A stretch of 34,743 nucleotides of DNA, taken from NCBI GenBank assembly GCA_023247935.1, contig JAHFFM010000002.1:1-34743 (forward strand), read 5' to 3'. Numbering within the stretch: the stretch's first letter is position 1; the number at the start of each line of letters is the position of its first letter. Position numbers and translations under genes: made by a program. Under the pieces are notes generated by a model, which saw only the letters and a list, made by a program, of their open reading frames with translations, was not told the DNA's origin and did not search any database. Below, piece by piece: positions 1-28,366 of this stretch. Source of the stretch: Candidatus Omnitrophota bacterium. GTDB lineage: Bacteria > Omnitrophota > Gorgyraeia > 2-02-FULL-51-18.

Positions 1-3000
1 CTTTGAGAGAAATTTTTCCACGAACGAAAAGTTTTTCTAAAGTCAGGTCTCTCATATAAGGAAAAATATTGACCACTCTATTTCCGACTCTTCCTACGAA
101 ACCGGGGATGAGATCCTGTGGGCCTTCATAACTTTTATCTTCGCGTATCTTTCCCAAAGTCCTAATCGCTCGAATGACTCGTCTTTCATTATCGTGCAAC
201 TGTTTGGCAAAATCCGTGAAATCTGAAACTTTGATGACCACGACCTCTCCTTTGGGAAACTTGGCTGCTTGCACCGCCCCCACGTCGGTTCCCTTGATGT
301 TGCCTATAAACTCGCATCGACCCCCGTCCAAAATCTCCCCCACCACTTCCCCGGAAAACCATTGGCGGGATTCGCCAGCCAGCCGCGCGCCTTTCTGGGA
401 GGCTGCGTTATTTTTTCGGATAAACTCTTCTAAAGTTCTATCCCCATCATCCTCATCCGGCACCAAATCCCCTGCATCAATCGCCACAAGTTCACCCGCC
501 CGCGTCACCCTATATTCGGTTGCCACGACAAAACCTGCTAAACGTAAAAGCTCATTAACAGTCAGGAAATCTTTGTGTTGTTCAGGAGTATTAGTATTGC
601 CTCCTAAAATAATTTGCATGACGTACCCCGTGACATCCCCGGACTCAACCACGCCGTAAAACTTGGCGCCGATCCCAAGCCGGTCTAACACCTGGGCATA
701 AATCAACTCTCCTGGAGAAAGGCCTCCTTTTCGATACAACTTCACGGCCACAGGCTGGACACGCCCATCGATTTTTGCCAAGCCTAGAAAAACACCCAAA
801 GAAGAGACAGATCTCTCCTTTTCACTTATTCTTGGCAAACTTCCGAGAGGCGATAAAAGCTTTATCTTTTTAAATTGATCGGGTTTTTGGGCAATAGGAG
901 CATAGGCAATTTCTCTTCTGTGATCCATGGCCCAAGCGACATTTTTAGGAGCTTTGGAAAAATCAGCGTGGTCATTTCTGATTTCAATCCCAAATTTTTT
1001 GAATTGATTGTCGTTGGCGAGTCGCGCAGCGGCAGGAATAGAGCGAGCTCTTACACCCTCTGGAAAACCGACGGATCCGCCGATGAATTGAGATCCTGGA
1101 GAGGTATTGGTAATGTTGTAATTCATCCACTTGAAAGAATCTGGGGGCAAAGCGTTTCTTTTCTCTTCGTTTAAGAGATTTCTCGGAGAACCAATAGAAG
1201 AACGCATGATCACAAAAGTACCTTGGGCATGGGGACTTAATGAAACATACGGTGTGAAATAAGCGCGCTTGGCAACCAGAGTGATGGTGCGAGAGTCTAC
1301 CGCGTTTTTATCTTCTTCACTGATTTCCGCCGGCTTAAAGTGCCATTCAGAAGGTTCCGGCGCCCATCCCCAATGGAGAAAAGCCCGATAAGTCCCGTCG
1401 CTCAAAGATGTTATAAATTGATTTCTTTCGTCCACTGTCGCGAATTGAAGTGTAGTTTTAAAATCTGCCCGTTGATCCTGATATTCCATTGAGCCGCCTT
1501 GCCACGCGAACGAGGATAAAGGCAACACCAGCGCTTCATCGATAAAGCGTTTGTAGTCTTTGATGCCCCAAACCTCGACACTTGGCAATCTCCGTCCGTC
1601 GGGTGTTTCCGTGTATTCGGAGCCGGGACCTTGTTCATGCAACACTTTTTCGTTGCGTAACACGCGCTCAAATACCTTGGCCAATCTCTTGAGACGCTCT
1701 CTATCGAATTTTTCGGAAGAAAATTCAAGCTCAAATTGACCTCTGTCATCAATCGCCAGCATCATCATCTCCGTGGGTTTTGATAAACTGGCTGATTCTG
1801 GCCTGCCATACCCATTAAAATGCGCTTTGATAATTAAGGATTCGTCGTATGACCGAGCATATTGATCAAGAATCTCCAAAACAGCGCTCGGACGCGCATG
1901 AATCCCTCGATGCGACAAAACACGCACCATCTCTGTATAATTCGCCAGTCGCGCGGCGGCTGCTTTGGGTTTGACTGCGGCTTCGAATCTAAAAAATTCG
2001 TTCACCTCTTGAACAAGCCCTTGCAATAATCGCGTGCTTCCATTCCATGAGGCTTGTTCTGCGGCAAAAAATAAACGCGCACTTTCCGAATTTACAACCA
2101 AGAGACTACTAAATCGGGCAAGTGCTTGTTTTATCTCATTAACACTAATTGTTTCTTTTGAGTCTCTAATAGTCCGAAGTAAGTGCGCCTTCCTATCAAG
2201 AATTTCTTGCGAACGAAGGTGTGCCTGTTTTTTTTGGAGGGCAAGCCCTCTCACGCGATTCATCAAAAACGATTCTTTTAGTTCCCGAGCCACTCTTATT
2301 TTTTTGCGTGCCTCCAATCTTGCGGTTCTACTCTCAAGCTCTGCTCTATAAAAAGTGGTTATTGCTTCGCCTGAAAACATTTTAGGAGCAACGCCTCTAA
2401 GAACTTGCTTCATTTTGGTAACAATTTTCAGTTTGTCTCCTGGAGAGATCAGGCGTGGATCAGAAAAAGTATCGTCATTTGTCAGCCTTTGTAGCATTTC
2501 TAGAAAAGGTTGCGCATCCGACACGGCCAGGGCTTTCAATCGAGTCACCAGATCGTACTCAGCATTTCTGGTAAGTTTTCCTTCGCAAAGAAGGATAAAA
2601 TCCGCTAAAACATCATCGGAAGATACCTGTCTTCCTGCTCCCCACGGAAAAGTATCTGCCGCCATCTGATCTGTCACGTCAATCGGATCACAAAAAGCAC
2701 CATCATGAAATAAAACAAAGTGTCGACTAACTTTATTTTTAGTATCGTAATACCATACGCCTCTAGCGTTTACTTTCTTACCCCCAATAGATACCCCGTG
2801 AAAATTCACCCAATAACGTTTTGTTTGGTTAGAGAGCCCAAAGCCGGATAAACGAATCTCGACTCGCTTTCCTTCCAAATTATAGAGGTGATCTGGTTTA
2901 CGATAAGCGATACTTACTAGATCAGCGTCAGAGTTGGGAAAAAACGTGCCGCCATTGGCAAGCCAATAAACATTCCACTGAGCTTTAGCGTTATTCGCCA

Positions 3001-6000
3001 TATGTGTTACTGTTGGGATTTGAGGTAAATGCCAATAACCCACCATGGGTTTACCTGCAACGTTTTGAGTGACAACTTGCCCGTTCTGATAGAGCACTAT
3101 GGAATCTAATGGGATTTCGGAATGCTGTCCTTTTTCTGAAGGCGCCCAAAGCGTGGCCACCCATGCGTCTTTTGCAATCCACGGAGCTCTTTGAATCTTA
3201 AGAATTGGTTTCTCAGCACTACGCCGATATACAAGACGCACATTTCGAGACCAAAAATTAACAGTATGGTCTTTTTGATCTAAAGAGAAAAGGCCTGATC
3301 CCCTCGGGAAAGAATCTTCAGTGATTACCTGGAGCTCCCAAGGAAGATCATCGTGTATAACGCCGGATAAAATCTCCATTTGTAAAAGTTTATCCGGAGA
3401 GGGCGATGAAAAATTCATGTGGCCAGTCACAAATTTTCCATCTCTAACAAAAGGATATCTAGCTGAGACAAAGCGCTTTCCTGTGTACTTACTAACCACA
3501 TGTAACTCAATGTCATAAGCATTGGGACCAAATTTGAAAACAGAGATCGTTGCAGTATCATCTCCTAAATAAATCGGTTTGCCAGTCGCGTAAACCAGAC
3601 CTCTCGAATCACTTTTCTTTTTAAAATACGTCGTTCCTACTTTCAACCTTCCATATTTTTTTCGTAAGGGCAACTGCCCCACCTCTCTCAAGCTAAAGGG
3701 GATCTCCTCATTCAGCTCCATGTACGGCAAAATATCGACAAGCCCCGCTAATCGGGTTACAAGTGTCTGTCCATTCAAAACGCCTTGATGAATTCTTGCT
3801 AAACGCGCGCCGGTGATTCGAGCTACCTCTTGTTTCACAAGACCTGTTTTATCGGCTAATGCAGGCTCACTATAACTTTTCCCGCCCGCCTCTTGATTCA
3901 GCCTTTCGCTTCTATAAAAAAGAGCGATGAGATGATCTTTCACGCTTCTACGATTTACATTAAAGATGGGCTGTTTTAGATAAATCCTAGCGATTTTTTG
4001 GAGATGGAGCGATTTTAATTTCAAAGCTTTATTCAATACTTCACGTTTCAGTTTCTGATCTTGGGTAGAATACGTTTTCGCCAGATAAATGGCTTCGGCT
4101 AATATTTCCTGATAAGCCACAGACCAGTGGCGATCATGAAATTGATCTTCTCTTGGATCAAAAACTTCATTCCCCACCGTTTGGATTTCATCAGATAAGA
4201 TTTGTATCGCCTCTGACCCGCCTTTCAACGAAAGCGTCATGGCCCAGATCCAATAGTGCTCATAATAACCTTCGGCATTCGTGACGATTTTAGATTTGCG
4301 CGTCTCTTCGACATTTGTAAATTCTAGTAGAGCGTCCACATAGTCCAGATAAAGGTCTTCATTCTTCCTCAGGTTTTGTGTAAAAGAAAACTCCAGAGCG
4401 AGACGAACCATCACTCCGGTAGCTTCGTAATTTCCTTGGGCATATTGTGCTTTCATCGAAACCAGTTGTTGAATTCGATCCAAAATATCGTTTTGATGTG
4501 TTTTTGCCAGCCTCAATACCTTTTCCAAAGAAACGTTCGGATTTTTTATAATCTCCCCGACTCTTTTCCGGTGCTTCTCTATCACCGCGTCCACAAACAA
4601 CAAATCGGGACTTGTTTTGGGCGCTTCCGCCAGACGAGCCCCCAGCTTTATCTTCAGTAGAAGTTGATGAGCCAGTAAGGTACTGGGAGGATGTTGACGG
4701 CCAGAGATCACCTGCCCTAAATAACCGTTGATCCAATACCTCGCCCCCTTATCCATTCCGGCTATCATCACCAGGATCTCGGAGGCCGCTTGCATCTCGA
4801 TAGCCTTTTTTCGCGACTGAGATTTAGGCGCGATGGCTACCAGCAGCAAACGGTAAAGAGTTCGTTTGGAAACTTTGCTCTTCCATGCCATCAATAAAAA
4901 GGTCGCGATTTCATTTTTGTAGGGCGGGTAATAATTTTCATTTTTTAAGTGCCCGATCAAAATGTCTACCGGATTATTTCGCCATTCATTTTTTCCTTTT
5001 GTAAAAAATAGAGGCCTTTGAGATTCGTCCTTGTTCTCCCATTCTCTCTGCCATTGCATCAAAAATTCCAAGGCTTCATTGGCGGGTTTCTCCGGAGCAT
5101 TGATTTTTATTTCGCTTAAACGATCTAAAATCTCGTGGAAGGAATCGTGATAACTTGCCAAACGCGCGCCTGCGCTTAAAACTATGGCATCGGGAAGATT
5201 CAATCCATCGGTAGAGTTAACAAAACGGCAAGTGCCAAGATTACGGCCTGAGCTGAAAGCTAAATCATTAGTTTCCCTGATATGCCTTTTGGTAGAAAAA
5301 ATAAAAGTCGCGCTAATAGAGGCGACCACGACTTCTTTGGCGCCACGCCAAAGAAGAGCCGCGGGTAAATAAGGATTCGTTTCGGAGATCCCCTCGACGA
5401 TGAAGGTTTTGTCTTGGACTTCGGCGGGCACCGACATGCCTTCCAAAAGCTCTCGAATTCCAACCGCCACTGGGTTTGCGCTTTTTATGTCGCCCTTTGA
5501 AATTACCGCTCCATCCCCATTATTTCTAGAAGCATACTCCAGTTCTTCCAAGATAACCGGCAACGCTTCTGTTCTAGAAAGGAGATCTCTCGCTTCATCG
5601 AAAATGGTGCTACGCCCTCTCACGCGGTTAGCAGAAACAGAGAGCAGATAAGTATCTTGAAAAAGACAGGCGCACACATAAGCCAATCGAGGCAAACGGG
5701 AATGCCCTGCTTTAAAATTTGCGAATGCATTGTAATCTTTGGCTTGGCAAGTATCTCTCAAAAACTCAAGCTGGCTTTTTGCCGGATTAGATCCTCTTAG
5801 TGACCGCAAAATATAGAACACCAGCGTCTGATCAAAAAAAGAGATGGTTTTTGGGTCATCCACCATCTTCCAGATAGCCGTAAAAGCATCCGCGTCAGTC
5901 GCTGGTTTTTGCGTCCAAGTCCCCTGCCGAATAAGTATTTCAGAAATCAGGTTGATCGCATCCCGATCCGGCGGCGCGATGGAATTTCTTTTCTTATCCT

Positions 6001-12000: not shown

Positions 12001-15000
12001 AATTATTAAGAATGTAGGTCTTCTGTCCTTTTTTCGCTGCTTTCCTCGCCTCATGCCGATGAATTCGCGTCACACCCGCCGCAATTTTTTTTGCGATAGC
12101 CTCATCTAAATTCCCATGAATACGAAGCATTGTTTTTCCAAATTTTCTATCAACAAACGTCCGCTCTCTATTGCCCACCATCCGTACTCCCGCCAGCCCC
12201 TCTTCCGCTGAAACTTTGGAGGCTAGCCGTGCGCCGTGTGCTCTTTCTTCCGGCATTAAAAAGTGTGCTTGGTAAGCCTCAAGCGCCATCCTTCGAATTC
12301 TTTCTGAAATTTTAGGATCCAGCGGGTCTTTGCCTACCACAAACGCTAGAAATTCATTCAATGGCTCTTCGCCCATCATCCGGGCAATCATCTCTGCTTT
12401 TAATTTGAGTTCTCCTTGAGCCTCAGTCCCGCCCCCTTGTGCAAATACATTGGTCAACGTAAACACTCGATCCGGCACAAATACCCCATTCGTCCACGTC
12501 GATTTTAGAGCGGCTTCGACCTCAATAATAATCTCGGCAATTATTTTTTTATGTTCCGCATAATCGTCAAAATATCCCTTCAATAATTTTTCGTCAGGAC
12601 GCAAAATGGCGTTCGCGCTTCCTTCCACATCCTTGGCATTCCGCGCATCCTTTTTGATGGCATAGCTCAGCGCATCGAAATGAGCCAACTCTTCATTGAC
12701 TGTGTCTTGAAGATATTGCCAATAAGCGGCTGGGTAGACGAGACCTTGTTCTCGAAGGGTTTCTTCTAATTGAGTCTGGATTGGAGAGGGATTTTTGTAA
12801 TCCCTGCCATGGAAATGAACATTGATCCAACCGAACGGATTTCTTCGATAGAGAGCTGGGTCGAGAGTGCCGTCTGGCAATTGGTTTTCTTTATCAGCGA
12901 GTATTTCTCTAGCCTTGTCCACCACTTTCAAGTCATGGTCTGCGACAGGGCCGGATACAACGATCACTACTTCATTTCTAGCGGGCGCTGTTTCTGCATG
13001 ACTGTAGATTTCGTAAGGATCATATACAAAATAAGTGGTCACTCGATGCCCATCGGGAGATATCAAGGGGAGTACTTTGTAAATTTTGCTAACAATCAAA
13101 AGTGTTCCCTTTGACTGAGAGACCGACTTCAATAAATATCCTTTAGTAATCAAGAAAGACTTGAAGTCTCCATTAAGGAAATCCCAAAGGTCTTCAACCT
13201 TTAATGAGCTTTTGGAATCAAAAAATCTTTTTGGAAATACCCCCTCTTCATCTATCTCTTTTAAAAGAGGTTCTATTTCTTGACGAAATTGGCTCATCGA
13301 AATCTCTTGAGCCATGCAAGAGATCATCAGCTCCCCTATTTTTGGTGCAAATCTGACATAAAACCACCGAGATGCCGGATCTTCGGCTTTATTTTCTGCC
13401 AAGCGCGCCCCACCCACGCTTCCAAGCGCGCGTAAGACTTTTTTTATTTCAGCGAGTGTCTTTATTCCGATCCCATCGATATCCAGTATTTGTTGGGGTG
13501 TTGCCGATTTGAGTTGGCTGAAATTTTTTATTTTGCCAGCTTTTAATTGCTCGGTTTTGCCGATAGGAAACTCACCAATTTTGGTTTTACCCGCAGGCTC
13601 GTATCTTCCTTGCTGTCTAGCTTCTCTCCATTTCTTAATATTTTCCCAGCGTCGCCATTCCTCCAAAGCGCTCTGTTTCATGGCATTAATGGCTTGCGCC
13701 GAAATACTCCTGCTCTTAGTAGAGAATTTTTTCAGATATTTCTTAGCAATAGACTCTTCGCTTTTATAGGTCGGGGAAATAAACAAGAGCCTTAAAACTT
13801 CTCTAAGCTGAGGACTGAGCCTGAGGAACGATTCTCTATTCCCTGCCTTCCAAGCCTCTACAAATTTTCCAGAAAGCTTTTGATGATATTCGTTTTGCCT
13901 GCTCTCATATTTTTTATCTACCATTTCATACAATTTTTTATAATTGATGGAACGTTTGCGAAAATATTGAGTCAGAGTCGCTCTTTTAATTCCCATAAGC
14001 TTAGCTGCCTCCGAAACTGCAAGGCCTTTGAGGGATTTTTTATGCTTCTCCAGAAGAGCAGGAATTTCAGAGGGCACACCTGGCTCTCCCTTTACGATTC
14101 CATAGTCGGCAGGATCCTCTTCCGGATGTCGTTCAAAATATAAAAAAAGAGAAGGGTTGCTCACCCCCATCAATCTCGCAGCTTCTCTAAAACTGGGCTT
14201 TTCCCGTTGAAGCAATCGTTTATATTTCCTTAAAAGGGGTCCAACAATAGCCCTCTTAGTGGGCTTTTTTTGCACCATTTTTTTCGCCAGCCGCGCACCC
14301 GTTCCCAGCTTCTTATATTTCTCTTTCATCGCTTGCCATGCGGCTTGGTCTTGGATCGGGCCTAATCGCCGCTCCATATCCTTAAAAAATAAATCAAAAT
14401 TAACCCCATTTGAATTTGGGTCTATGTAGCAATAAACCTGACTGGTATGCGCCGATTCTTTTCCCAGAACCGGTAGAAAATTTCTAGTATCGAAATCCAC
14501 GAAGAAGCCATCTCCACCATATCTGTAGGGGAACAGATGGATATTTCTTGGGGACAAAGCGAGACGATTGATATCGTTGGCAAGATCGTAGACCCAACGC
14601 TCTTCAACAGGAGGCAATAGGGGGGCGCTTGATTTCTCAATCCAATCTACGCTCTCAAGGAGTCGTTTTTTAGCTTTTTCCCAACGTGCTAACACTTCAG
14701 AATATCGTGCTGTAAATCGCTCGCGCGTTAAACCTCCGCTCTTTTCGAGATCAAGAATTGCCTTGGAAGTGATGGCGAAATATTGACGAGCGCTAATTCC
14801 CTGTAAATTCTCCGTTCCTCCATAAGCTTGGTGCTTCTTCGCCCAAGCGACCAACTCATCAATATCCTGAGGCTGTAAAAACATCTGAAACTCGGCGTCC
14901 ATATGCGCCAAAACATCCCTGACAGTCCCTACGCGGAACTGGGTTTTAGCAGAATCGATTTTTAAACTTTCATAATTATCAGAGAACCTTTGTCTTCCAT

Positions 15001-18000
15001 TGCCTAGATTGTGTAACAAAGCATTAGCAATAGGATATTCCCTATCTTCGTGAATTAATGTGTAAAGATCTTGCTCATAAATCCTTTTCATTTCAGCGAC
15101 GGCCTCCATACCCTCTTCCCATGCCGTCAGTCGCGCACCGCGGATGATTTCCAGGCGCGTGATGTTCGGCATTTTGACAAATTTGGCAGAGTCCAGACCG
15201 AATTTGGATTTCAACCGGTTCAGATTTAACGTCGAGATACCGGGGCCTTCATCAAAAACAATGATGCGCAGACTGCCACCGACCTCCTCTTGGCGAATAA
15301 TAATGGCTGGATCGTCATACCTAAATTTTTCATTTTCTCCGGTGATCCATGTAGCTTTAAAGATCGATCGAAAAAGTGGCTCGACCTCTTCAAATTTGAC
15401 GCCCTTTATCTTTTCTTCAAAACTTTGCCTTAGAATCGCCAACGAATTTTCCACGAACAACTTGCGCGGCATCCGAACCGTGTAGCCGCCCACATTTCCT
15501 TTTGCCGCCGGAACGTCATAATAATGATAATGATGTTGCGCCACGATTCCCGGCTGCTTTCTCAAGTGGTAGATAAATTGATAGTAATGATTCTTATCGA
15601 CTTGTTTCCGACGCTCAAGCTGCATGGCTTCGATGAGGCGGTCGAAAATCGCTGGATCAAGGGGCTTTTGGTTTTCCTGTCGTATCCGCTTCTGATCTTT
15701 TTTCCAGCGTCTATACAATAAGTCAGACAGAGCCTCAAAATTTTTGCGATTAGAAGCTAGCGGAAATAAATAAGTGTCGACCGAGCCCAAATCATAATGA
15801 ATCTGCACTCTGATTTCACTTCTGTCATTGGGATAGTCAATCTCAAGCATAGCGTTTTCATCGAGAAGTTCGACCTGATAAGACATCATGCCATAATGGT
15901 CGACAACGGTTGCCGGGTAGGGACGGCTCCGAACGAGCTCGACGATTTCCTCGAACGTGAGAAGTTCTCTAGCTGATGTTTTTGGTGTAAGCCCGATTTT
16001 GGAATGAGAAATAGAAACAGGATCTTGAGCAGTCAAAACCACTCCATACGCGTAATTTCTTAAAGCGTTAGCGTCATCTTTGGGTAAAATAAAAACCTGG
16101 GCGTCAAACCCGCGCTGCTTGTAAAAATACCGGATGGTAGCAGGGCTTACCAAGCGATTATGATTGGCCGCCATACGCGATGTAATGGACTGGTCTGTGC
16201 TCCACCAACCTTCCAGTGTTTTCTGCCGACGGATAATTCTATTAAGACGAGCGAGAGAGTTTTCTTTAGGATGCTTGGCAATGTACTCGAAATCCTCATA
16301 GGACGTTCCCCGATGCTGGGTGCCTTCTTGTTGCATTTCTATTCCCTGTTGTTCCAACAACGCATGAACCCGCTTCATCAACTTTTCGTACTGAGTCTTG
16401 TCTTGAACGGTTTTTAATAAGCTTTCGGCCAATCGAGTAATAAACAAGCTCCGGCTCAAATAGCTCTCATGAAAATCATTCCAAATAGTTTCAAGACGAA
16501 GATCGTCACTGCCAGGCGCATCGAACAAAACAACGGCCTTGCCCCCTTGCCTCAAAACTCTTCTCATTTCAACGGCGCCCTGGTGGAGATTCAAATAACC
16601 TTGCGTAAACGAAGAAACAACAAAATCGCAGGAGTTCGTGGCTAAAGGTAGGTTTTCGGTTTGAGTGCGGCGATAGCGAACATGGCGCGCCGGGCTTTTG
16701 ACAAACCGGGTTTTGGGAAACACGTCGATAGCAGTAACCGTGCCGCTGGGTCTCGATTTGGCCATGGCATTCGCGAGCCACAAATGAGGCCCTGAGCCGA
16801 TGTCAGCCATTCTCAAAGGAGTCCCAGGCTCAAACGTTTCCAATTCATGCAGTACAAACCTCTCGAACATCGCCGGGTAATACTGGTCGAAGCGGCGTTT
16901 ATGGTAAGTATTCTCGGGTAAAAAACGCTCTTTCCATCCTTTCATCAACCTAGATGGTAGCGAGTCGTTGCGCAGGGATTCAAATGCTATAGATCCAACA
17001 CCACTCGAAAGCCGCGCGCCGGCTTTTAGTTTCTTCGAAGCTTGCGTTAGATTTTTAATGCGTTGAATACCTTTGGAAGACTGTGCTCGATCATAAATAC
17101 TTAAAATTACTTCTGGGGCTTCCTCTCGTCTGGAGCTCAATACTTGAAAAGCCTGATGGAGCTTACCTTCATACTTAATGGCAAAAAGTAGTGCCGCTTT
17201 TTCAACTTTCTGCACAAAACCGTCGATAACGGCGTCCGCAAATTTTTTAGAGGAATCCACGAAAAGAACCTGTTCGTTCAAAACCACATGAAGAGGTTTT
17301 TTTAGGCGCTGCGCTTCGTCCAGAAGACTGGAAAAAACAACTCCGAGACATCCCTCGATGGATCCTCCAGCGATAATCACATGTAAAATCGGCTGACCGG
17401 ATAATTGTTTCAGAACAGACCGAATCGTTTGATGCATGTGGGTTTCATACCAATGAGCAATAATCCGGTCTATTTGCTTTTTCGTGAAGCCCTGCGATCT
17501 CAGCGTTACTTCTGTCGGCTTTTGATTCGTCCAAAAATAATGACTGCCCTCTTGCCTTAAAAATCCTCTGTCTTTAAGTTTCCGAGTTAAGCTTTGATCA
17601 TGCCCAGGATCAACAAAATAGCGTTCTCCAACATTGTCGCTATAAGTCACTCTTGGCCAGCGCGCGACATTCGTCTCCCCAAAAATTTGAATTCCTGCTT
17701 TCGCCAATGCTGCCATGTTTTCGCCAACAGCAACCAGACCTTCTTCCTCTTCACCGGCCGCAAAATGATTTACAACAAACAAAGCCGCTTTTTCATTTGC
17801 TAGCCGGGCACCTTCTTCCACGCGTCCCAATCTGACGGTGCTGATGGGTTCCATGAGTGAAGCGGCGACTAATGTGTTGGCGTCGGCTAAAGATAATTTG
17901 GAGGCGTCGGCTGTAAGGACTTTTTTATTTCCCGTGAGAGGCTCCAAAAGAATCGATTCGTATTTTTTGCGATTGGTTTCGCCAGTGACGGTTGGAGTGA

Positions 18001-19522
18001 GAACGGCGTAGGAGTAGCCTTGTTCTTTGAAAAGCTTTGTCAGATGTTCGGTGTGATAGCCGCCTGAGATAAGGACGGCGACTTTGGCTTGGTGTTCCGT
18101 AAGAGCGTTTTGGGTTTTTTGAATGAAGGCTAGGTCTCTTTCACCGACCGAAGTGTAAAAATCCCGGAGAGCCAGCTTCGTGTCTTCGAGCGAGCGGTCG
18201 AGCGGAAGCAAATCGTCGAAATAACCTAGTTCCGCGAGTTTTCGATTGATGAATGCTAAATAACGCTCTTCACCAAAATCCGGCTCATTAACTTCAAACA
18301 AATGAAACTCCTCGGAGCTCATTTGAATGCTGTAGGCAGAGCGAAGCAGATTCAAATAGCGATCGATAGCATGGATCAACAATGCGTCATTGCGAGGAGC
18401 CGGAGGCGACGAAGCAATCTCAGTCGAGAAGATTGCTTCGCTCACTTCGTTCGCTCGCAATGACATATCGTAAACTTTCTTTTCTAGAACTTCTGATTCC
18501 GCAATCAGCCTGGCGAGGTCTATTTTTGAAAAGGCTTCTAAGTAATCCAGGTATTCTTTGAGATTGGGGTATTCCCTAGCCTCAACCCCATTCTTCTCGG
18601 CAATAATAAAAGTATTTCGTAAGTAGGAAAATTGAGCAAGCTTCTCCTTGCCTAATTTCCCGGCGCTTTCAAGGTATTCTCGAAGCTCTCGTCCTCCCCC
18701 GCTTTTTTCAATCGCCTCAATGAGCGACGCCTGCTCTAAATTGGCGAGATTAAAATCCATTTTGCTTTCCTGGTCTTGAACCGCTAAAAGTTTTCGGATC
18801 GCTTCAAAACTGGATAAATCGAGATTATTTTTTACCGCCAGCGCCGCCAGCGCTTTAAAATTTTTCTCGGCCGTTTGATTTCTCTCTTTTTCGTATGAGA
18901 TTAGTTCTTCGGGATAAAATTTATTTTTGAGTTTTGCGAGCGAGCTTTGTGCACGACCGATGGATTCCAGCGCATGTTCGCGCTTGCCTGCCAAATCGGC
19001 GTACGCGTGAAGACTTTTCATGTACAGTTCTTTGTCTTCAACACCGATGATTTTCATCGGGTGATCCGAGGTGAGATTGAGATATTCCTGCCCAGCGATT
19101 TCTCCGTCGATTAAAAATTTCTTGGCCAGGCGATCCCAAACTTTGCGAGACGCCATTTTCTTGAGTGCCGTCAGCGTATCATCTTGAGAACCACCTTCCG
19201 ACAACACCAAATCCACTCCATATTTGGACATAATCTCATCCAGCGTTTTGGCGAGATTTTGCTGACCGCTCAGATTGGCGTGAGCGTCTTGGATGTGGAT
19301 GATAAAAACATTTTTGTCGCCACGATGAATTTCTTTAAGCGATGAAAATTGGAGCGGCGCCTCAAAACGCGTGGGGTCAGAAAGGAGCGTGGCCAGCGGC
19401 TTTTCAGGCAAAAGCTTTCCTATATTATCTACCGGCGACGCCCAAGCCAGATCGGATAAAAGAAAAGTAAATACCAAAAGAAAGCTGATAGCCCTAATGC
19501 TTATCGGTTTTCTACTATTCAA
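1..19522 (-). CDS. Giant secreted multidomain protein, 3'-partial (at least 6,507 codons in window; no stop before the window edge)
   Basis: The frame is minus strand with codon first bases at coordinates = 1 mod 3. I hand-translated it from TTG 19522 for more than 570 codons. I spot-checked it at 1-60, 360-840, 9360-9780, 11400-11520, 13440-13500, 13920-14220, 15240-15540 and 16500-16860. All stretches are open and protein-like. An in-frame TAA lies upstream at 19538-19540, and GAAGG sits 7 nt upstream of the TTG. None of the listed minus-strand ORFs is in this frame. Any in-window stop would have produced a listed ORF, so the frame must stay open to position 1. Confidence 0.85.
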   Translation of the reverse strand, partial: MNSRKPISIRAISFLLVFTFLLSDLAWASPVDNIGKLLPEKPLATLLSDPTRFEAPLQFSSLKEIHRGDKNVFIIHIQDAHANLSGQQNLAKTLDEIMSKYGVDLVLSEGGSQDDTLTALKKMASRKVWDRLAKKFLIDGEIAGQEYLNLTSDHPMKIIGVEDKELYMKSLHAYADLAGKREHALESIGRAQSSLAKLKNKFYPEELISYEKERNQTAEKNFKALAALAVKNNLDLSSFEAIRKLLAVQDQESKMDFNLANLEQASLIEAIEKSGGGRELREYLESAGKLGKEKLAQFSYLRNTFIIAEKNGVEAREYPNLKEYLDYLEAFSKIDLARLIAESEVLEKKVYDMSLRANEVSEAIFSTEIASSPPAPRNDALLIHAIDRYLNLLRSAYSIQMSSEEFHLFEVNEPDFGEERYLAFINRKLAELGYFDDLLPLDRSLEDTKLALRDFYTSVGERDLAFIQKTQNALTEHQAKVAVLISGGYHTEHLTKLFKEQGYSYAVLTPTVTGETNRKKYESILLEPLTGNKKVLTADASKLSLADANTLVAASLMEPISTVRLGRVEEGARLANEKAALFVVNHFAAGEEEEGLVAVGENMAALAKAGIQIFGETNVARWPRVTYSDNVGERYFVDPGHDQSLTRKLKDRGFLRQEGSHYFWTNQKPTEVTLRSQGFTKKQIDRIIAHWYETHMHQTIRSVLKQLSGQPILHVIIAGGSIEGCLGVVFSSLLDEAQRLKKPLHVVLNEQVLFVDSSKKFADAVIDGFVQKVEKAALLFAIKYEGKLHQAFQVLSSRREEAPEVILSIYDRAQSSKGIQRIKNLTQASKKLKAGARLSSGVGSIAFESLRNDSLPSRLMKGWKERFLPENTYHKRRFDQYYPAMFERFVLHELETFEPGTPLRMADIGSGPHLWLANAMAKSRPSGTVTAIDVFPKTRFVKSPARHVRYRRTQTENLPLATNSCDFVVSSFTQGYLNLHQGAVEMRRVLRQGGKAVVLFDAPGSDDLRLETIWNDFHESYLSRSLFITRLAESLLKTVQDKTQYEKLMKRVHALLEQQGIEMQQEGTQHRGTSYEDFEYIAKHPKENSLARLNRIIRRQKTLEGWWSTDQSITSRMAANHNRLVSPATIRYFYKQRGFDAQVFILPKDDANALRNYAYGVVLTAQDPVSISHSKIGLTPKTSARELLTFEEIVELVRSRPYPATVVDHYGMMSYQVELLDENAMLEIDYPNDRSEIRVQIHYDLGSVDTYLFPLASNRKNFEALSDLLYRRWKKDQKRIRQENQKPLDPAIFDRLIEAMQLERRKQVDKNHYYQFIYHLRKQPGIVAQHHYHYYDVPAAKGNVGGYTVRMPRKLFVENSLAILRQSFEEKIKGVKFEEVEPLFRSIFKATWITGENEKFRYDDPAIIIRQEEVGGSLRIIVFDEGPGISTLNLNRLKSKFGLDSAKFVKMPNITRLEIIRGARLTAWEEGMEAVAEMKRIYEQDLYTLIHEDREYPIANALLHNLGNGRQRFSDNYESLKIDSAKTQFRVGTVRDVLAHMDAEFQMFLQPQDIDELVAWAKKHQAYGGTENLQGISARQYFAITSKAILDLEKSGGLTRERFTARYSEVLARWEKAKKRLLESVDWIEKSSAPLLPPVEERWVYDLANDINRLALSPRNIHLFPYRYGGDGFFVDFDTRNFLPVLGKESAHTSQVYCYIDPNSNGVNFDLFFKDMERRLGPIQDQAAWQAMKEKYKKLGTGARLAKKMVQKKPTKRAIVGPLLRKYKRLLQREKPSFREAARLMGVSNPSLFLYFERHPEEDPADYGIVKGEPGVPSEIPALLEKHKKSLKGLAVSEAAKLMGIKRATLTQYFRKRSINYKKLYEMVDKKYESRQNEYHQKLSGKFVEAWKAGNRESFLRLSPQLREVLRLLFISPTYKSEESIAKKYLKKFSTKSRSISAQAINAMKQSALEEWRRWENIKKWREARQQGRYEPAGKTKIGEFPIGKTEQLKAGKIKNFSQLKSATPQQILDIDGIGIKTLAEIKKVLRALGSVGGARLAENKAEDPASRWFYVRFAPKIGELMISCMAQEISMSQFRQEIEPLLKEIDEEGVFPKRFFDSKSSLKVEDLWDFLNGDFKSFLITKGYLLKSVSQSKGTLLIVSKIYKVLPLISPDGHRVTTYFVYDPYEIYSHAETAPARNEVVIVVSGPVADHDLKVVDKAREILADKENQLPDGTLDPALYRRNPFGWINVHFHGRDYKNPSPIQTQLEETLREQGLVYPAAYWQYLQDTVNEELAHFDALSYAIKKDARNAKDVEGSANAILRPDEKLLKGYFDDYAEHKKIIAEIIIEVEAALKSTWTNGVFVPDRVFTLTNVFAQGGGTEAQGELKLKAEMIARMMGEEPLNEFLAFVVGKDPLDPKISERIRRMALEAYQAHFLMPEERAHGARLASKVSAEEGLAGVRMVGNRERTFVDRKFGKTMLRIHGNLDEAIAKKIAAGVTRIHRHEARKAAKKGQKTYILNNCFELSQSLANLLRSLMKGFAADILRCDELDQTGPVRFMNHGVAYIWSSKHHIAIDITAKSYLKSQDKSLDIDAEVFVADTNENLEKALINYYGGDKWKTGQEDIMDMLGRDWNEGARLSVDKPLVSADEFRQAFRKINQLSRETIFDEAQQERIILKLISMKLEKGRRVLVVGPGGRDYMPALLAFCGLEVTAIDTDHMVQEIQEHLHRKLEVSESIQYFDSWQDLQEASSKNKFNYVLMFGVPNYAVTRNTRMLMAIRLMSSVPGADEETQNMVNGRVEGELYGMFAPIVPLLNPKHGHLFISDSEETMRRMSPMIRKIFDEYGKEQATPIRGIVRSDADLNFTLDQHPLGTFPKVGLTLEVRKIGGARLTARRGKLESRDFKIIWPKLHGRPATSLVSLTELVNHIPGVRVLAANKSRLTRMDSWTGLCLLGIKEGGFLTVTVAAPESIKGDIFDLYERVINDPYYHTIALVKNSDRYRQLEVEVGRITGKLAARLAGATARVTKEFDNSDGWMMPLEIELTVNGGRKKIGIRFQGMVAVDEGEARDVIAIKYLVYENTRFEGSPAELSMALDKQTHRVISTIGDFKNFKEFSQITAWLFLMVSKAWDKQGIEAAARLAENQPAPETLYGETEREVIYIMALAKDHFFKAAWKAMLIWGFNYSLTKEEVVNEDVLRKYFSYREKTSRKEFRFIRGIFTWAFLWKGSKKYILVHTAIERLSQKELVQLLPLVKQPTDFSDQDVRGHLLLGMKDKARMVEYVRGDQIMELGSAAGDILGLVKQKLPDAKVVGIEFDEELLKQARRNHPKIEFYRHDLTQWNIPSDFKGQFSTVIISSTLHEIDVSFGREMSRRVLKLAQDLLKPGGTLIFRDGVKPEPREVEVFLKTEYAKQKFEKFVKEYRHRKISFSYTDDSHKKVRLSSYDLHDFLSKYYFEGDLWNRDMDESAGQMTESQYRELLGDYFEIEHVEAYIAPYLQDRWKKDFEMERGEVYPNSHIFIVAKKPLAARLATATESLPEIGNTTMAEKVEQIRARFGDMERLGSGIQFWIYDKVRVKKKLSYREWLDADRFYAMLGLLDQLIKSANQYDVTEFRKFIAEHKDELAGLVKFMDSKLLIGETIATGSFSSHRPSNYNGSFDQPVPYQALSFYFPWVVFDGGSGLNGKFSNFKVAFQEIKESWAEIRLAIMAELPQAGARLAEEPKSGDLDWAKAEEALLGIERNLNKIREFVVVAPGVSKVYFEANYFTQITEVREIYDSFKQKKQISRDDLDRMLSLLHLLAYHAQLPRRTSSEAFDRWIWRILLGERNKETDGDADNREIAQRYFKRRERLFNSHGDKILNLAEKFEESMRLLSGIPDDEQTGGARLAEDSQARAGRAIRISQLIGDAAEKIYQTSLKHPEINDNELLGQFEALLKGHEELYSEMVPMISRWAKTTLLNKDYTSWEAFTLKLYQIFADRHPVISRRTFFQWVTAAFVTAPLASSILSTLTEPAAVVAEQVAAPIAESFILQFNEPAVLARVMARAKAGVLSSNSSPVLSTVVDNGIQLLWGKERDALNKFRAGANKILIGEAIQTVPGASDPLGLLDKNFGDVIHSHLVSQELQAKPELQALMGAIKRADATFQGMGPRAQGRFSNQLSQLAARKDMISAEELQTKLDASTESALKKNWSNYVAPTFMAGELLPYRIYLKVQDPKDPAKSYIVLLSQPERSNDSWQFPRYYEFASYEIYVFPVPEAPIPRGREELIFYKHRHLSPKNLPLKHRAQRAYIQVRNDEHGVPLEIFRDDFYLFGHNSYEWLEDTVRDWFEDWQKVMQVSRRSTPSLIEALDGDPRRLASFYWIAPGPAGGEEEPVREYLIHFDLAPEQDRYDIRVTPVKNAARWDDAANWKGDYVASIALKFDDQDRLLKPSGKSWEIIFGSGRNPDDYFWLTGFVQQRLDALVGRPFSVNEPEFVAHPEIFGRVGEGARLTARKSAAIRMIEELSRQREAKRFLVFLKKALHFKDKKRNSIAPPDRDAINLISEILIRQGTWTQKPATDADAFTAIWKMVDDPKTISFFDQTLVFYILRSLRGSNPAKSQLEFLRDTCQAKDYNAFANFKAGHSRLPRLAYVCACLFQDTYLLSVSANRVRGRSTIFDEARDLLSRTEALPVILEELEYASRNNGDGAVISKGDIKSANPVAVGIRELLEGMSVPAEVQDKTFIVEGISETNPYLPAALLWRGAKEVVVASISATFIFSTKRHIRETNDLAFSSGRNLGTCRFVNSTDGLNLPDAIVLSAGARLASYHDSFHEILDRLSEIKINAPEKPANEALEFLMQWQREWENKDESQRPLFFTKGKNEWRNNPVDILIGHLKNENYYPPYKNEIATFLLMAWKSKVSKRTLYRLLLVAIAPKSQSRKKAIEMQAASEILVMIAGMDKGARYWINGYLGQVISGRQHPPSTLLAHQLLLKIKLGARLAEAPKTSPDLLFVDAVIEKHRKRVGEIIKNPNVSLEKVLRLAKTHQNDILDRIQQLVSMKAQYAQGNYEATGVMVRLALEFSFTQNLRKNEDLYLDYVDALLEFTNVEETRKSKIVTNAEGYYEHYWIWAMTLSLKGGSEAIQILSDEIQTVGNEVFDPREDQFHDRHWSVAYQEILAEAIYLAKTYSTQDQKLKREVLNKALKLKSLHLQKIARIYLKQPIFNVNRRSVKDHLIALFYRSERLNQEAGGKSYSEPALADKTGLVKQEVARITGARLARIHQGVLNGQTLVTRLAGLVDILPYMELNEEIPFSLREVGQLPLRKKYGRLKVGTTYFKKKSDSRGLVYATGKPIYLGDDTATISVFKFGPNAYDIELHVVSKYTGKRFVSARYPFVRDGKFVTGHMNFSSPSPDKLLQMEILSGVIHDDLPWELQVITEDSFPRGSGLFSLDQKDHTVNFWSRNVRLVYRRSAEKPILKIQRAPWIAKDAWVATLWAPSEKGQHSEIPLDSIVLYQNGQVVTQNVAGKPMVGYWHLPQIPTVTHMANNAKAQWNVYWLANGGTFFPNSDADLVSIAYRKPDHLYNLEGKRVEIRLSGFGLSNQTKRYWVNFHGVSIGGKKVNARGVWYYDTKNKVSRHFVLFHDGAFCDPIDVTDQMAADTFPWGAGRQVSSDDVLADFILLCEGKLTRNAEYDLVTRLKALAVSDAQPFLEMLQRLTNDDTFSDPRLISPGDKLKIVTKMKQVLRGVAPKMFSGEAITTFYRAELESRTARLEARKKIRVARELKESFLMNRVRGLALQKKQAHLRSQEILDRKAHLLRTIRDSKETISVNEIKQALARFSSLLVVNSESARLFFAAEQASWNGSTRLLQGLVQEVNEFFRFEAAVKPKAAAARLANYTEMVRVLSHRGIHARPSAVLEILDQYARSYDESLIIKAHFNGYGRPESASLSKPTEMMMLAIDDRGQFELEFSSEKFDRERLKRLAKVFERVLRNEKVLHEQGPGSEYTETPDGRRLPSVEVWGIKDYKRFIDEALVLPLSSFAWQGGSMEYQDQRADFKTTLQFATVDERNQFITSLSDGTYRAFLHWGWAPEPSEWHFKPAEISEEDKNAVDSRTITLVAKRAYFTPYVSLSPHAQGTFVIMRSSIGSPRNLLNEEKRNALPPDSFKWMNYNITNTSPGSQFIGGSVGFPEGVRARSIPAAARLANDNQFKKFGIEIRNDHADFSKAPKNVAWAMDHRREIAYAPIAQKPDQFKKIKLLSPLGSLPRISEKERSVSSLGVFLGLAKIDGRVQPVAVKLYRKGGLSPGELIYAQVLDRLGIGAKFYGVVESGDVTGYVMQIILGGNTNTPEQHKDFLTVNELLRLAGFVVATEYRVTRAGELVAIDAGDLVPDEDDGDRTLEEFIRKNNAASQKGARLAGESRQWFSGEVVGEILDGGRCEFIGNIKGTDVGAVQAAKFPKGEVVVIKVSDFTDFAKQLHDNERRVIRAIRTLGKIREDKSYEGPQDLIPGFVGRVGNRVVNIFPYMRDLTLEKLFVRGKISLK
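9385..9715 (-). other. Class I SAM-dependent methyltransferase-like module C within the giant ORF
   Basis: Translated QIMELGSAAGDILGLVKQKLPDAKVVGIEFDEELLKQARRNHPKIEFYRHDLTQW...FSTVIISSTLHEIDVSFGREMSRRVLKLAQDLLKPGGTLIF. This carries the complete motif I / II / III / LKPGG series typical of Methyltransf_11/12/25-type domains. Confidence 0.65.
11270..11500 (-). other. Rossmann/class I methyltransferase-like module B within the giant ORF
   Basis: Translated GRRVLVVGPGGRDYMPALLAFCGLEVTAIDTDHMVQEIQEHL. It has a glycine-rich motif I followed by an acidic residue at the end of beta-2 (AIDTD). Confidence 0.45.
13433..13489 (-). other. Helix-hairpin-helix-like motif within the giant ORF
   Basis: Translated ILDIDGIGIKTLAEIKKVL. 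It has the hxxhxGIGxKTA signature of HhH DNA-binding motifs. It lies just upstream of the GARLA site at 13397-13411. Confidence 0.45.
13960..14190 (-). other. Two helix-turn-helix-like motifs within the giant ORF
   Basis: Translated FREAARLMGVSNPSLFLYFERH and VSEAAKLMGIKRATLTQYFRKR. Both resemble the Fis/HTH_8-type pattern AAxxLGISRxTLYRKL. Confidence 0.45.
15236..15453 (-). other. GHKL (histidine kinase/MutL/Hsp90-type) ATPase-like boxes within the giant ORF
   Basis: Translated FVENSLAILRQ is N-box-like (E-N-S-x-A). About 69 residues later, RIIVFDEGPGIS is G1-box-like (DxGxG). That spacing is longer than usual, so the call is tentative. Confidence 0.3.
16520..16830 (-). other. Class I SAM-dependent methyltransferase-like module A within the giant ORF
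   Basis: Translated sequence: ...PLRMADIGSGPHLWLANAMAKSRPSGTVTAIDVF...NSCDFVVSSFTQGYLNLHQGAVEMRRVLRQGGKAVVLFD. This shows motif I (hhDhGxGxx), an acidic residue at the end of beta-2 (AID), a DFVVS strand and the typical RVLxxGG segment. Confidence 0.6.
19439..19522 (-). other. Sec-type signal peptide of the giant protein (MNSRKPISIRAISFLLVFTFLLSDLAWA / SP)
   Basis: The N-terminus has a basic n-region (R, K, R), a hydrophobic core AISFLLVFTFLLS and an A-W-A motif before Ser-Pro. This was translated directly from the sequence. Confidence 0.6.
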
Positions 19523-19594
19523 TCGTTGACCTTCTTTTTAAAGCAACTATTGGAAGTACCTAGAGTTAGATCGTGCAAGCGATTAACTTGCCAA

Positions 19595-19624
19595 AGTATA
19601 CACGGGAACCCCCTCCATTTTCAA
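19595..19624 (-). promoter_or_regulatory. Candidate sigma70-like promoter of the giant gene (TTGAAA - 18 nt - TATACT)
   Basis: On the minus strand, TTGAAA lies at 19624-19619 and TATACT at 19600-19595. The -10 is about 70 nt upstream of TTG 19522 and next to a strongly AT-rich tract (19620-19712). This is a pattern match only. Confidence 0.3.
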
Positions 19625-19989: not shown

Positions 19990-20015
19990 GTGCGGATAAA
20001 CTTTTGGAGTTTTTA

Positions 20016-20381
20016 ATGTCTTTGCTTCATGATTATTCGTACGTCCTCGGCTTTCTGATTATCGGAATCGGCTTCGTTGTCGTCAACAGCATCCTCCCCC
20101 TTCTCTTAAGTCCCAAAAGCCGCGGCTCCCGCGCGAACGACCCTTACGAAAGCGGTGAGGTGCCTATCGGTAACGCGTGGATCCAGTTCGACATCAATTA
20201 TTATCTTTTCGCTTTGATTTTTTTGGCATTCGACGTGGAAGCGGCGTTTTTATTTCCCGTACTCGTCGTCTACCGCTCCATGCTGAGTTGGGCGATGTTT
20301 TTAGAAATCGCCTTATTCTTAGCGCTACTGAGCTTCGCGATACTTTACGCCTGGAAAAAAGGACTTTTTGAATGGAAATAA
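20016..20381 (+). CDS. nuoA: NADH-quinone oxidoreductase subunit A
   Basis: It carries the ND3/NuoA signature ...DPYESGE...[25 protein letters not shown] prefer ATG 20016 (GGAG 6 nt upstream) over the track's TTG 20004, which sits too close to the predicted -10. Confidence 0.9.
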
Positions 20382-21040: not shown

Positions 21041-21044
21041 TCCG

Positions 21045-26873: not shown

Positions 26874-26899
26874 TCGTTTAAAAAATAAAAGGAATCTTG

Positions 26900-28357: not shown

Positions 28358-28366
28358 GCGACCAAA

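Follow-up and report, generated by a model that had tools for sequence, protein, structure and literature searches.

A giant reading frame of Candidatus Omnitrophota divided by a recurring pentapeptide and headed by a predicted TIKI-like domain

Introduction

Can a long stretch of bacterial DNA that looks devoid of genes be a single gene, and what would such a gene encode? The question is raised by a 34,743-nt stretch of Candidatus Omnitrophota DNA (contig JAHFFM010000002.1 of assembly GCA_023247935.1, positions 1 to 34,743; the whole stretch is called the window below), whose first 19.5 kb hold no long open reading frame (ORF) in a program-made ORF list. A preliminary description, drawn up from the sequence alone, had proposed a single giant gene on the minus strand of this region. 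Our analysis indicates that 2-19522 (-) is almost certainly the 5' 19.5 kb of one real chromosomal Omnitrophota giant gene. After an N-terminal signal and a conserved N-terminal domain, its product is divided into a series of modules by a GARLA-type pentapeptide, which is very probably a selected recognition or delimiter element, and we lean towards a polyprotein-like precursor as the explanation of this architecture.

The Omnitrophota are ultra-small, probably predatory or parasitic bacteria, and giant ORFs make up a notable share of their small genomes. A giant gene as such is already a known kind of gene in this phylum, in which giant ORFs have been documented repeatedly (PMC10066038; bioRxiv 10.1101/2023.11.21.568195; bioRxiv 10.64898/2026.06.07.730766). 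The literature leaves open whether the encoded proteins act whole or cut up, and in one of the giant-gene preprints the cleavage points are described as unknown and the proteins were for that reason not split for structure prediction. A lineage-specific delimiter located at natural protein ends would supply explicit candidate cut sites for such proteins and, in any case, a practical rule for splitting them into modules for annotation and structure prediction.

A single open reading frame fills the first 19.5 kb

Programmatic translation of the reverse complement yields one ORF at 2..19522 (-), with 6,507 codons and zero stops down to base 2. The five remaining frames of 1-19522 contain 222-433 stops each, and their longest open run is 175 aa. 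The TTG start codon (19520..19522, -) is supported by the N-termini of homologues, which align from residue 1 (e.g. P0003). An in-frame TAA lies upstream of it at 19538-19540 (-), and a Shine-Dalgarno-like GAAGG is found 7 nt upstream of the start (19530..19534, -). Both the uninterrupted frame and these start details agree with the preliminary description. Further upstream there is a promoter-like sigma-70-type TTGAAA-18-TATACT (19595..19624, -), which is a consensus match only.

A single base, position 1, is left over on the other side. Since the frame is open to base 2, the window edge, the gene is cut at its 3' end and runs past the left edge, as had been supposed; 19,521 nt of it are visible. 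Within this frame, recognisable domains are spread over residues 29 to about 5950, and copies of the motif discussed below over residues 571 to 6378. The ORF list had missed the gene solely by omitting ORFs that run off a source end, which makes this a concrete case of how pipelines that drop edge-truncated ORFs hide giant genes.

A frame of this length could be an artefact, that is, an assembly chimera, a chance opening or the result of a recoded genetic code. We regard this as very improbable. The stop counts of the other frames exclude a chance run of 19.5 kb, the same in-frame motif and codon style extend along the entire ORF, and composition is uniform, with an even GC content of 0.43-0.50 across the window. 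Neighbouring genes use ordinary stop codons, independent assemblies show the same architecture with ORFs of more than 3,850 aa, and long-read complete genomes with such giants have been reported (bioRxiv 10.64898/2026.06.07.730766). The point in favour of an artefact is that the source contig was not found in the public collections searched. An exact 53-mer of the left edge had no match in genome_contigs or metagenome_contigs, and the last 339 aa of the visible protein had no relative in metagenome_contigs. A look-up of NuoH, which is encoded further along the window, returned two shorter contigs (ENA samples ERZ27296333 and ERZ27280176), neither of which carries the giant gene.

Its size alone, together with a signal peptide that suggests a surface or secreted location, might also place the protein in a conventional giant class, such as a tandem-repeat adhesin, an RTX/MARTX toxin or a nonribosomal peptide or polyketide synthase (NRPS/PKS). 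This is almost certainly not the case. Tandem Repeats Finder (TRF) detects no nucleotide tandem repeats in 1-19600, and there is almost no protein similarity between modules, which match neither each other nor repeat families. Searches of the visible 6,507 aa against Pfam and NCBIfam reveal no RTX, cysteine protease (CPD), condensation, adenylation, carrier, ketosynthase (KS) or acyltransferase (AT) domains. The earlier impression that the gene encodes neither a tandem-repeat adhesin nor an NRPS/PKS is thereby borne out.

A pentapeptide recurs in phase along the frame

The pattern [GA]ARL[AST] is present in 20 copies in the giant frame, against a mean of 0.11 and a maximum of 3 in 2,000 shuffles of the protein. 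In the in-frame scan, with all coordinates on the minus strand, the first copies are motif 1, GARLA, at aa 571 (17798..17812); motif 2, GARLS, at aa 835 (17006..17020); motif 3, GARLT, at aa 1462 (15125..15139); motif 4, GARLA, at aa 1742 (14285..14299); and motif 5, GARLA, at aa 2038 (13397..13411). They are followed by motif 6, GARLA, at aa 2430 (12221..12235); motif 7, GARLS, at aa 2622 (11645..11659); motif 8, GARLT, at aa 2875 (10886..10900); and three copies of the form AARLA, namely motif 9 at aa 3002 (10505..10519), motif 10 at aa 3124 (10139..10153) and motif 11 at aa 3513 (8972..8986). Motif 12, GARLA, is found at aa 3701 (8408..8422), motif 13, GARLA, at aa 3870 (7901..7915), motif 14, GARLT, at aa 4471 (6098..6112), motif 15, GARLA, at aa 4785 (5156..5170), motif 16, GARLA, at aa 4961 (4628..4642) and motif 17, GARLA, at aa 5238 (3797..3811). 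The last three are motif 18, AARLA, at aa 5856 (1943..1957), motif 19, AARLA, at aa 6165 (1016..1030) and motif 20, GARLA, at aa 6378 (377..391). The preliminary description had already recorded all 20, from 17812 to 391 and in the same phase, as a marker of the frame; they do mark it, and what that account did not see is that they are the most informative feature of the gene.

The motifs split the chain after the N-terminal domain into pieces of 122-627 aa. Their flanks are unconserved, apart from a mild preference for a small residue or Pro just before the motif and for Glu just after it. A single-sequence AlphaFold2 (AF2) model of aa 2600-3140 has a predicted local distance difference test score (pLDDT) of 31.7 and is uninformative on the motifs as linkers. 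We also considered whether the motif could be a signal peptidase I site ([AST]-G-A|R) and rejected this, as the internal motifs have no preceding hydrophobic region and the residue before the first position of the motif is small in only about half of the copies.

Module boundaries and cargo

At least 20 unrelated, protein-sized modules terminated by the motif follow the N-terminal domain, and the whole product has at least 21 modules. Where a module has recognisable relatives, its edges can be compared with the ends of those relatives. Module 13 (aa 3705-3873; 7904..8410, -) is 36% identical to a module of P0124, also a large protein, and motif 13 aligns with a GARLV at position 988 of that protein. 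The P0124 counterpart has GARAA at one edge and GARLV at the opposite edge; since this segment is bounded by the motif on both sides, module 13 and its two delimiters form one conserved unit. Part of module 14 (aa 3894-4292; 6647..7843, -) is homologous to residues 5-404 of P0123, a free-standing protein of 430 aa, and residue 5 of P0123 aligns 20 residues after the module 14 junction. In module 11, a match to the C-terminal half of a PRK06922-like class I S-adenosylmethionine (SAM) methyltransferase (aa 3260-3507; 9002..9745, -; NCBIfam E 7e-23, also Pfam Methyltransf_12/25) spans positions 408-673 of the 677 in the profile and ends six residues before the motif at 3513.

Module 19 starts directly after motif 18 and shows a weak resemblance to an HPr-like fold (aa 5865-5951; 1670..1930, -; Pfam PTS-HPr, E 0.0065, below the cut-off). 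The histidine of its GIHARP sequence lies 16 residues past the ARL|A junction, as does His15 in free-standing HPr. In two further module matches (P0016 and P0008) one boundary falls no more than about 20 residues from a motif. As judged from these alignments, module edges coincide with the natural ends of free-standing proteins.

The cargo that can be recognised comprises three class I SAM methyltransferases, of which two are clear and one is weak, a helix-turn-helix/helix-hairpin-helix module and two weak HPr-like folds. One of the methyltransferases is located in module 3 (aa 905-999; 16526..16810, -; Pfam Methyltransf_11, E 4e-10). Module 5 contains a helix-turn-helix (aa 1831-1867; 13922..14032, -; Pfam HTH_3, E 4e-5) and a helix-hairpin-helix-like stretch at aa 1993-2031, with weak matches to RNA_pol_A_CTD and HHH_5. 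All other cargo is without a Pfam or NCBIfam match. In word-seeded searches against 5.8 billion proteins, aa 5860-6507 had 0 matches and aa 2434-3704 a single weak one, so that most of the cargo has no detectable relatives at that sensitivity. A full HMMER scan of aa 3705-4788 (1,084 residues) against 1.84 billion representatives returned 5 relatives.

Three further stretches were noted. About 80 residues after the start of module 14, at aa 3958-3990 (7553-7651, -), a twin-arginine-like motif is followed by a hydrophobic stretch, RHPVISRRTFFQWVTAAFVTAPLASS; it is conserved in P0123 and in the 5,515-aa P0122, and may be a Tat-like signal or a membrane segment. In module 3, after the methyltransferase, a GHKL-ATPase-like IIVFDEGPGIS was seen by eye around aa 1415-1435 (15200-15300, -), and in the last two modules (aa 6169-6507; 2-1018, -) the kinase-like sequences VAVKLYRKGG, VAIDAGDL and VVVIKVSDF were likewise picked out by eye; for none of these is there profile confirmation.

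A family of giant genes with lineage-specific motif forms

When residues 1-2040 were used as query, 126 proteins were retrieved, all with the N-terminal domain. Nearly all of them align over the first ~530 residues alone, and their downstream Pfam content differs from homologue to homologue. The identity of the N-terminal domain to 120 proteins is 23-53%. Almost all organism-named homologues are from Candidatus Omnitrophota/Omnitrophica, which, with the giant ORFs documented in that phylum, supports the earlier guess at the origin of the gene. In species-representative genomes (one genome per species) there are at least 578 loci with the N-terminal domain, 79 of which were kept for analysis. 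Most of these 79 stem from Omnitrophota metagenome-assembled genomes (MAGs), and the others from automatically labelled MAGs ("uncultured Planctomycetia", "Eisenbacteria") that carry the same family. Many of the family-bearing MAGs (L004-L082) were deposited as "uncultured Planctomycetia bacterium" or "Candidatus Eisenbacteria bacterium", titles that are probably placeholders or wrong taxonomic labels. The giant-gene family appears, from the homologues retrieved, to be restricted to Omnitrophota.

The shortest family members have about 540 aa and the longest exceed 6,500 aa; at least 12 family ORFs surpass 3,850 aa. At L004, whose N-terminal domain is the closest to that of the window protein (53% identity), an ORF that runs past 3,858 aa carries 16 GARL motifs; L004 is among the MAGs with Planctomycetia/Eisenbacteria-type labels. 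A genome can hold several paralogues (seven loci, for example, come from isolate 3300053785_196), and between paralogues the cargo is extremely mosaic. In relatives it includes HATPase, GGDEF, kinases, phosphoglucomutase, CsrA, glutamine synthetase, M23 and M48 peptidases, SLT and HEAT repeats. Two family ORFs are present per locus at L065, L037, L033, L075 and L082, sometimes as a same-strand tandem; here either an N-terminal domain is preceded by the tail of the gene before it or two ORFs with N-terminal domains are found. This arrangement suggests local duplication and possible module exchange.

In most close relatives no short pattern is as strongly over-represented as a GAR[LM]A-type motif, which reaches as many as 16 copies in 3,858 aa. 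It is not found inside the N-terminal domain, and the first copy usually follows that domain within ~100 residues. ORFs with the N-terminal domain hold 289 motifs in 178,000 aa, compared with 59 in 160,000 aa for other large ORFs of the same loci, and most of these 59 fall in fragments of family genes. Each protein uses one form of the motif, essentially homogeneously, and the forms differ by lineage. Those of close lineages are GARLA, GARMA, GARVA/GARxA, GARAA/GSRLA, GAKLA, GSRLS and SRMA; more distant members have RMT[DE]R, (A)RFTE, R[AS]SAA, K.SS[AS]G, RTSP and RSELR, and a basic residue is the sole constant of all variants. Sites that are read by a co-evolving partner would be expected to be uniform in any one protein and to diverge between lineages, as these do; passive linkers would not.

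Complete relatives end in a conserved C-terminal tail of ~45-60 aa, and this part of the architecture is known from relatives, as the window gene is visible only in its 5' part. In the GARLA clade (73 of 120 proteins) the tail finishes in -AA or -SA, and in a distant clade (P0086-P0111) a homologous tail finishes in -SL or -AL. The family tail has the pattern ...[AT][RKQ][LM]xxxA[VI]G[AS]AA-COOH. It is found, among others, in P0003, P0007, P0012, P0016 and P0038, and at L007, L009, L021 and L050. From its conservation the tail looks like a terminal recognition signal. In 13 proteins the last canonical copy of the motif is located 9-15 residues from the C-terminus (e.g. ...LAGARLAAIGRSA). The motif thus also marks the end of the last module, where nothing is left to link.

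The N-terminal domain

After a basic N-terminus, a helix at aa 7-29 (ISIRAISFLLVFTFLLSDLAWAS; 19436..19504, -) forms the sole strongly hydrophobic, transmembrane (TM)-like segment in 6,507 aa by a Kyte-Doolittle scan. It is conserved in homologues and represents an N-terminal signal peptide or signal anchor. It leads into the family-defining N-terminal domain of ~520 aa (aa 29-545; 17888..19438, -), supported by homology, by an alignment of 24 diverse members (alignment A1) and by AF2. Alignment A1 contains 18 invariant columns, including H76, D79, H81, E109, E146, R462, G487, G488 and H490. The invariant H76-I-Q-D79-A-H81 (19280..19297, -) is a candidate for the acid-x-His half of a TIKI 2His/2Glu site. 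The invariant E109 (19196..19198, -) follows exactly 28 residues after H81, and the invariant G487-G-Y-H490 (18053..18064, -) would provide the second catalytic-type His in a GxxH-like context. The Pfam ChaN match stops at this last motif.

For the TIKI family, the catalytic set of active members has been described as 2His/2Glu in work on the MARTX effector RRSP, with E3900, H3902, E3930 and H4030 as the catalytic residues of RRSP and H85/E113 as the corresponding pair of Bcr135 (PMC6254334). The set of acid-x-His, a Glu at +28 and a later His is present here as D79-x-H81, E109 and H490, and the His-to-Glu spacing of 28 in H81/E109 is the same as in H3902/E3930 and H85/E113. An AF2 model of the domain built from alignment A1 (pLDDT 85.8, predicted template modelling score 0.80) shows an alpha/beta core in which six strands alternate with helices; a helical insertion of ~290 aa interrupts this core. 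PF04187 (ChaN, "Tiki superfamily") is the top Pfam match for 7 of the 24 members and for the family consensus, and is followed by weaker matches to TraB/PrgY/GumN and DUF5694.

The database scores for a placement in this superfamily all fall short of significance, although the weak matches agree with one another. The PF04187 match of the family consensus stays below the gathering score (22.6 bits vs a cut-off of 27.7; E 1.2e-4), and a Foldseek search with the whole domain model gave nothing significant (best E 0.03). The sole alpha/beta enzymes in the Foldseek list are EreC (6xcq), Bcr135 (3b55/2rad) and ChaN (2g5g), with E of 0.1-1.2 and low TM-scores, because most of the model is taken up by the 290-aa helical insertion. 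When PDB sequences were searched with a profile of the domain alignment, only coiled-coil noise resulted. Together, the weak matches and the arrangement of the catalytic residues, including the 28-residue spacing shared with RRSP and Bcr135, nevertheless make it probable that the N-terminal domain is a remote, catalytically intact member of the TIKI/ChaN/erythromycin-esterase superfamily. This superfamily contains esterases as well as two proven site-specific endopeptidases, Tiki and RRSP.

In a distant clade the N-terminal domain is found as stand-alone proteins of 535-620 aa with intact catalytic residues (L066:2-1663, L067:1692-3344, L069:9421-11103, L071:9719-11581, L076:323-1927 and L082:6540-8408). 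At L066 and L076 a single in-frame stop is followed by a long ORF. Read-through was considered and rejected for both, as the downstream ORFs are independent genes, one of which begins like glmS whereas the other has its own signal peptide.

Codon choice at the motif

The motif is also distinguished by its codons. In the window gene its Arg is encoded by CGN in 20 of 20 copies and never by AGR (63% CGN gene-wide), Ala2 by GCG in 15 of 20 (32% gene-wide) and Leu by CTG in 10 of 20 (14% gene-wide). Two distant relatives show the same codon pattern; the bias was noted at L002:10001-20185 and L003:10001-19936. Over 147 motifs pooled from 17 genes, GGC accounts for 87/127 Gly codons (background 0.38), GCG for 94/147 (0.41), CTG for 68/147 (0.28) and CGG for 79/147 (0.23, p about 7e-16); the codon p-values pool backgrounds over genes of differing GC and are perhaps somewhat inflated, although the bias is visible within single genes. 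Conserved Gly residues elsewhere also favour GGC, and the invariant Arg of the N-terminal domain favours CGC, not CGG. Accuracy-driven use of optimal codons at conserved sites was considered as an explanation, but it accounts for the bias only in part, for Gly and not for Arg.

These data bear on the idea that the motif is primarily a nucleic-acid element, for instance a microhomology or recombination junction for cassette swaps, or a signal in the mRNA or for translation (a programmed pause, for example), with peptide conservation as a secondary effect. The strong, motif-specific synonymous bias, with flanking codons at the gene-average GC content of third codon positions (GC3), speaks for it, as do the use of CGC rather than CGG at conserved Arg elsewhere and the extreme mosaicism of cargo between paralogues. 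Set against this, the third codon positions all vary although the encoded residues do not, Leu is drawn from CTN and TTR, position 5 may be Ala, Ser or Thr, and the lineage variants are coherent at the peptide level. The raised GC3 is confined to the 15 nt of the motif, and no excess of RNA structure is detected at the motifs after GC correction (p 0.2). We consider a primarily nucleic-acid role improbable. Amino-acid selection clearly dominates at the motif, and the synonymous bias indicates a further constraint that acts on the nucleic acid or on translation, for which a translational pause, a recombination junction or something else is a possible cause.

Processing or scaffolding

What, then, would the delimiter be for? 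In the polyprotein-like scheme towards which we lean, one targeting signal at the N-terminus would serve the entire chain, which would be cut at or next to the punctuation motifs to release separate enzymes, and the recognising protease would co-evolve with the motif. That the GARLA-type motif itself is a proteolytic processing site we put at even chances. One candidate for the protease is the membrane-tethered TIKI-like domain of the chain itself; another is the product of a different gene that would recognise the tail and act on the -AA end. The N-terminal domain is attractive in this role because it would bring a TIKI-type endopeptidase fold in the same chain, at the membrane where the chain would emerge. 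We nonetheless doubt that it is the protease, because its catalytic residues persist in stand-alone members and in distant members in which a recurring motif was not found.

Several observations weigh against the polyprotein-like scheme. Cleavage is inferred, as are the precise bond that would be cut, the protease that would act and the topology of export. The linkers are very short, with the motif abutting the last secondary-structure elements of some modules, and access of a protease to the motif is for this reason not obvious. Distant relatives in which no recurring motif was found keep the catalytic residues, as do the stand-alone forms, so that the substrate of the domain need not be the motif. 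The scheme does not account for the synonymous codon bias. In addition, the cargo consists of cytoplasm-type enzymes (SAM methyltransferases, helix-turn-helix, HPr-like), a poor fit to export by a signal peptide. By the positive-inside rule the bulk of the protein would lie outside the cytoplasm, yet its cargo looks cytoplasmic, and the predicted topology is uncertain; the same puzzle has been noted in the literature on Omnitrophota giants.

Alternatively, the chain could remain uncleaved as a membrane-tethered mega-scaffold, in which GARLA would be an inter-domain linker or a docking motif for the N-terminal domain, the tail or a partner. The inferred status of cleavage and the extremely short linkers suit this reading, publications treat Omnitrophota giants as possibly intact surface or membrane proteins and leave cleavage open, and the conserved ends of the chain, N- and C-terminal, could bind each other and so close it. 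Yet passive linkers do not normally have five invariant residues, nor do they change in concert within a protein and diverge between lineages; a motif 9-15 residues from the C-terminus has nothing to link, and the module edges match the natural termini of free-standing proteins. A scaffold is in our view somewhat unlikely.

In its fullest form, the polyprotein-like precursor would be a true cellular polyprotein. An anchored TIKI-fold endopeptidase would cut the emerging chain at the lineage-specific pentapeptide, dozens of unrelated enzymes would be freed extracytoplasmically or into prey by way of one targeting signal, the tail would mark the end of the chain, and the motif codons would add a pause or a recombination junction for module shuffling among the many paralogues. 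We offer this combination as speculation and consider it, taken as a whole, unlikely.

Genomic context

Beyond the giant gene, the window is ordinary chromosome. A complex I operon, nuoA-B-CD-H-I-J-K-L-M-N, transcribed divergently from the giant gene, occupies 20004-29794 (+), with nuoA, B, a fused CD, H, I, J, K, L, M and N; nuoE/F/G are absent between nuoCD and nuoH. NuoB and NuoI have Pro/Ala-rich C-terminal extensions, and long, spurious antisense ORFs at 20194-21136 overlap nuoB and nuoCD. The other genes of the window encode SMP-30/gluconolactonase-like, RlmI-type methyltransferase, NYN/YacP, AsmA-like and response regulator proteins. In related genomes, too, the family genes are surrounded by housekeeping genes, and no conserved secretion or protease neighbour was found there.

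Comparison with known systems

Among the giants reported for this phylum, the gene can be compared with the giant ORFs of more than 20 kb (Seymour et al. 2023, PMC10066038), as 19,521 nt are open in the window and the frame continues. With the class 1 "multi-enzyme" proteins of at least 10,000 aa (bioRxiv 10.64898/2026.06.07.730766) its domain pattern fits (PF08241, a signal peptide, no tandem repeats), with 6,507 aa visible. The features shared with these multi-enzyme giants are the phylum, a very long ORF tiled with divergent enzyme domains, the methyltransferase/HATPase-type "module 1" content, the N-terminal signal peptide, the lack of nucleotide tandem repeats and a largely sequence-unique cargo. 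The Archaeovorin-type giants have many transmembrane helices, SecA_DEAD domains and C39 or S8 peptidases (bioRxiv 10.1101/2023.11.21.568195). The window protein, in contrast, has one TM-like segment, at aa 7-25 in the hydropathy scan, in its visible 6,507 aa instead of many, and searches against Pfam and NCBIfam show no SecA_DEAD, C39/S8 peptidase, glycosyltransferase, glycoside hydrolase or NUDIX domain in this part. In two Omnitrophota giant-gene preprints, the strings "motif", "cleav", "Tiki" and "GARL" either do not occur or occur in irrelevant contexts. Neither the delimiter and its lineage-specific forms, nor the TIKI-like N-terminal domain, nor the conserved tail appears to have been described in the open-access papers and preprints searched. 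The delimiter further defines a large family across species-representative genomes.

Outside this phylum, NRPS/PKS enzymes are told apart by their condensation, adenylation, carrier, KS and AT domains, none of which is found in the visible part of the window protein, and tandem-repeat adhesins by head-to-tail repeats, which are found here neither in the DNA (TRF) nor at the protein level. Polymorphic toxins offer a parallel, since a short conserved peptide (VENN in CdiA) borders their swappable cargo and may serve both processing and recombination. These toxins have a single border per protein, however, whereas the window protein has at least 20, and its cargo is not recognisably toxins.

The N-terminal domain resembles the TIKI/TraB-PrgY/ChaN/erythromycin-esterase group in its predicted alpha/beta core and in the acid-x-His/28/Glu/His set of RRSP and Bcr135, and it resembles Tiki and PrgY in being, by prediction, tethered to the membrane next to a signal sequence. 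It differs from this superfamily in the Asp that replaces the first Glu, in the ~290-aa helical insertion, and in sequence and fold matches that stay below significance. For the proposed cleavage, this putative hydrolase is one specific candidate, and its four presumed catalytic residues can be named.

With MARTX toxins the window protein shares the huge polypeptide and the variable, unrelated effector or enzyme modules between conserved N- and C-terminal parts. MARTX modules are freed by site-specific cleavage in short inter-domain linkers, and the MARTX CPD cleaves after Leu. One of the MARTX effectors, RRSP, is a TIKI-fold endopeptidase (PMC6254334). The window protein differs in that its visible 6,507 aa contain no RTX/GD-rich repeats and no C80 cysteine protease domain (Pfam, NCBIfam), in its N-terminal Sec-type signal and strict pentapeptide delimiter, and in that the window holds no hint of type I secretion. 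Viral polyproteins processed by a 3C- or 3CL-type protease combine one ORF, many unrelated mature proteins and a short, genome-uniform, lineage-specific cleavage motif that co-evolves with the encoded protease. The window gene, by contrast, is cellular and chromosomal, lies among housekeeping genes and has, for its proposed processing, a candidate protease of a different fold. By analogy, MARTX toxins and viral polyproteins are the closest functional parallels, and the window protein belongs to neither; if the proposed processing holds, it would be a cellular counterpart of the viral polyproteins.

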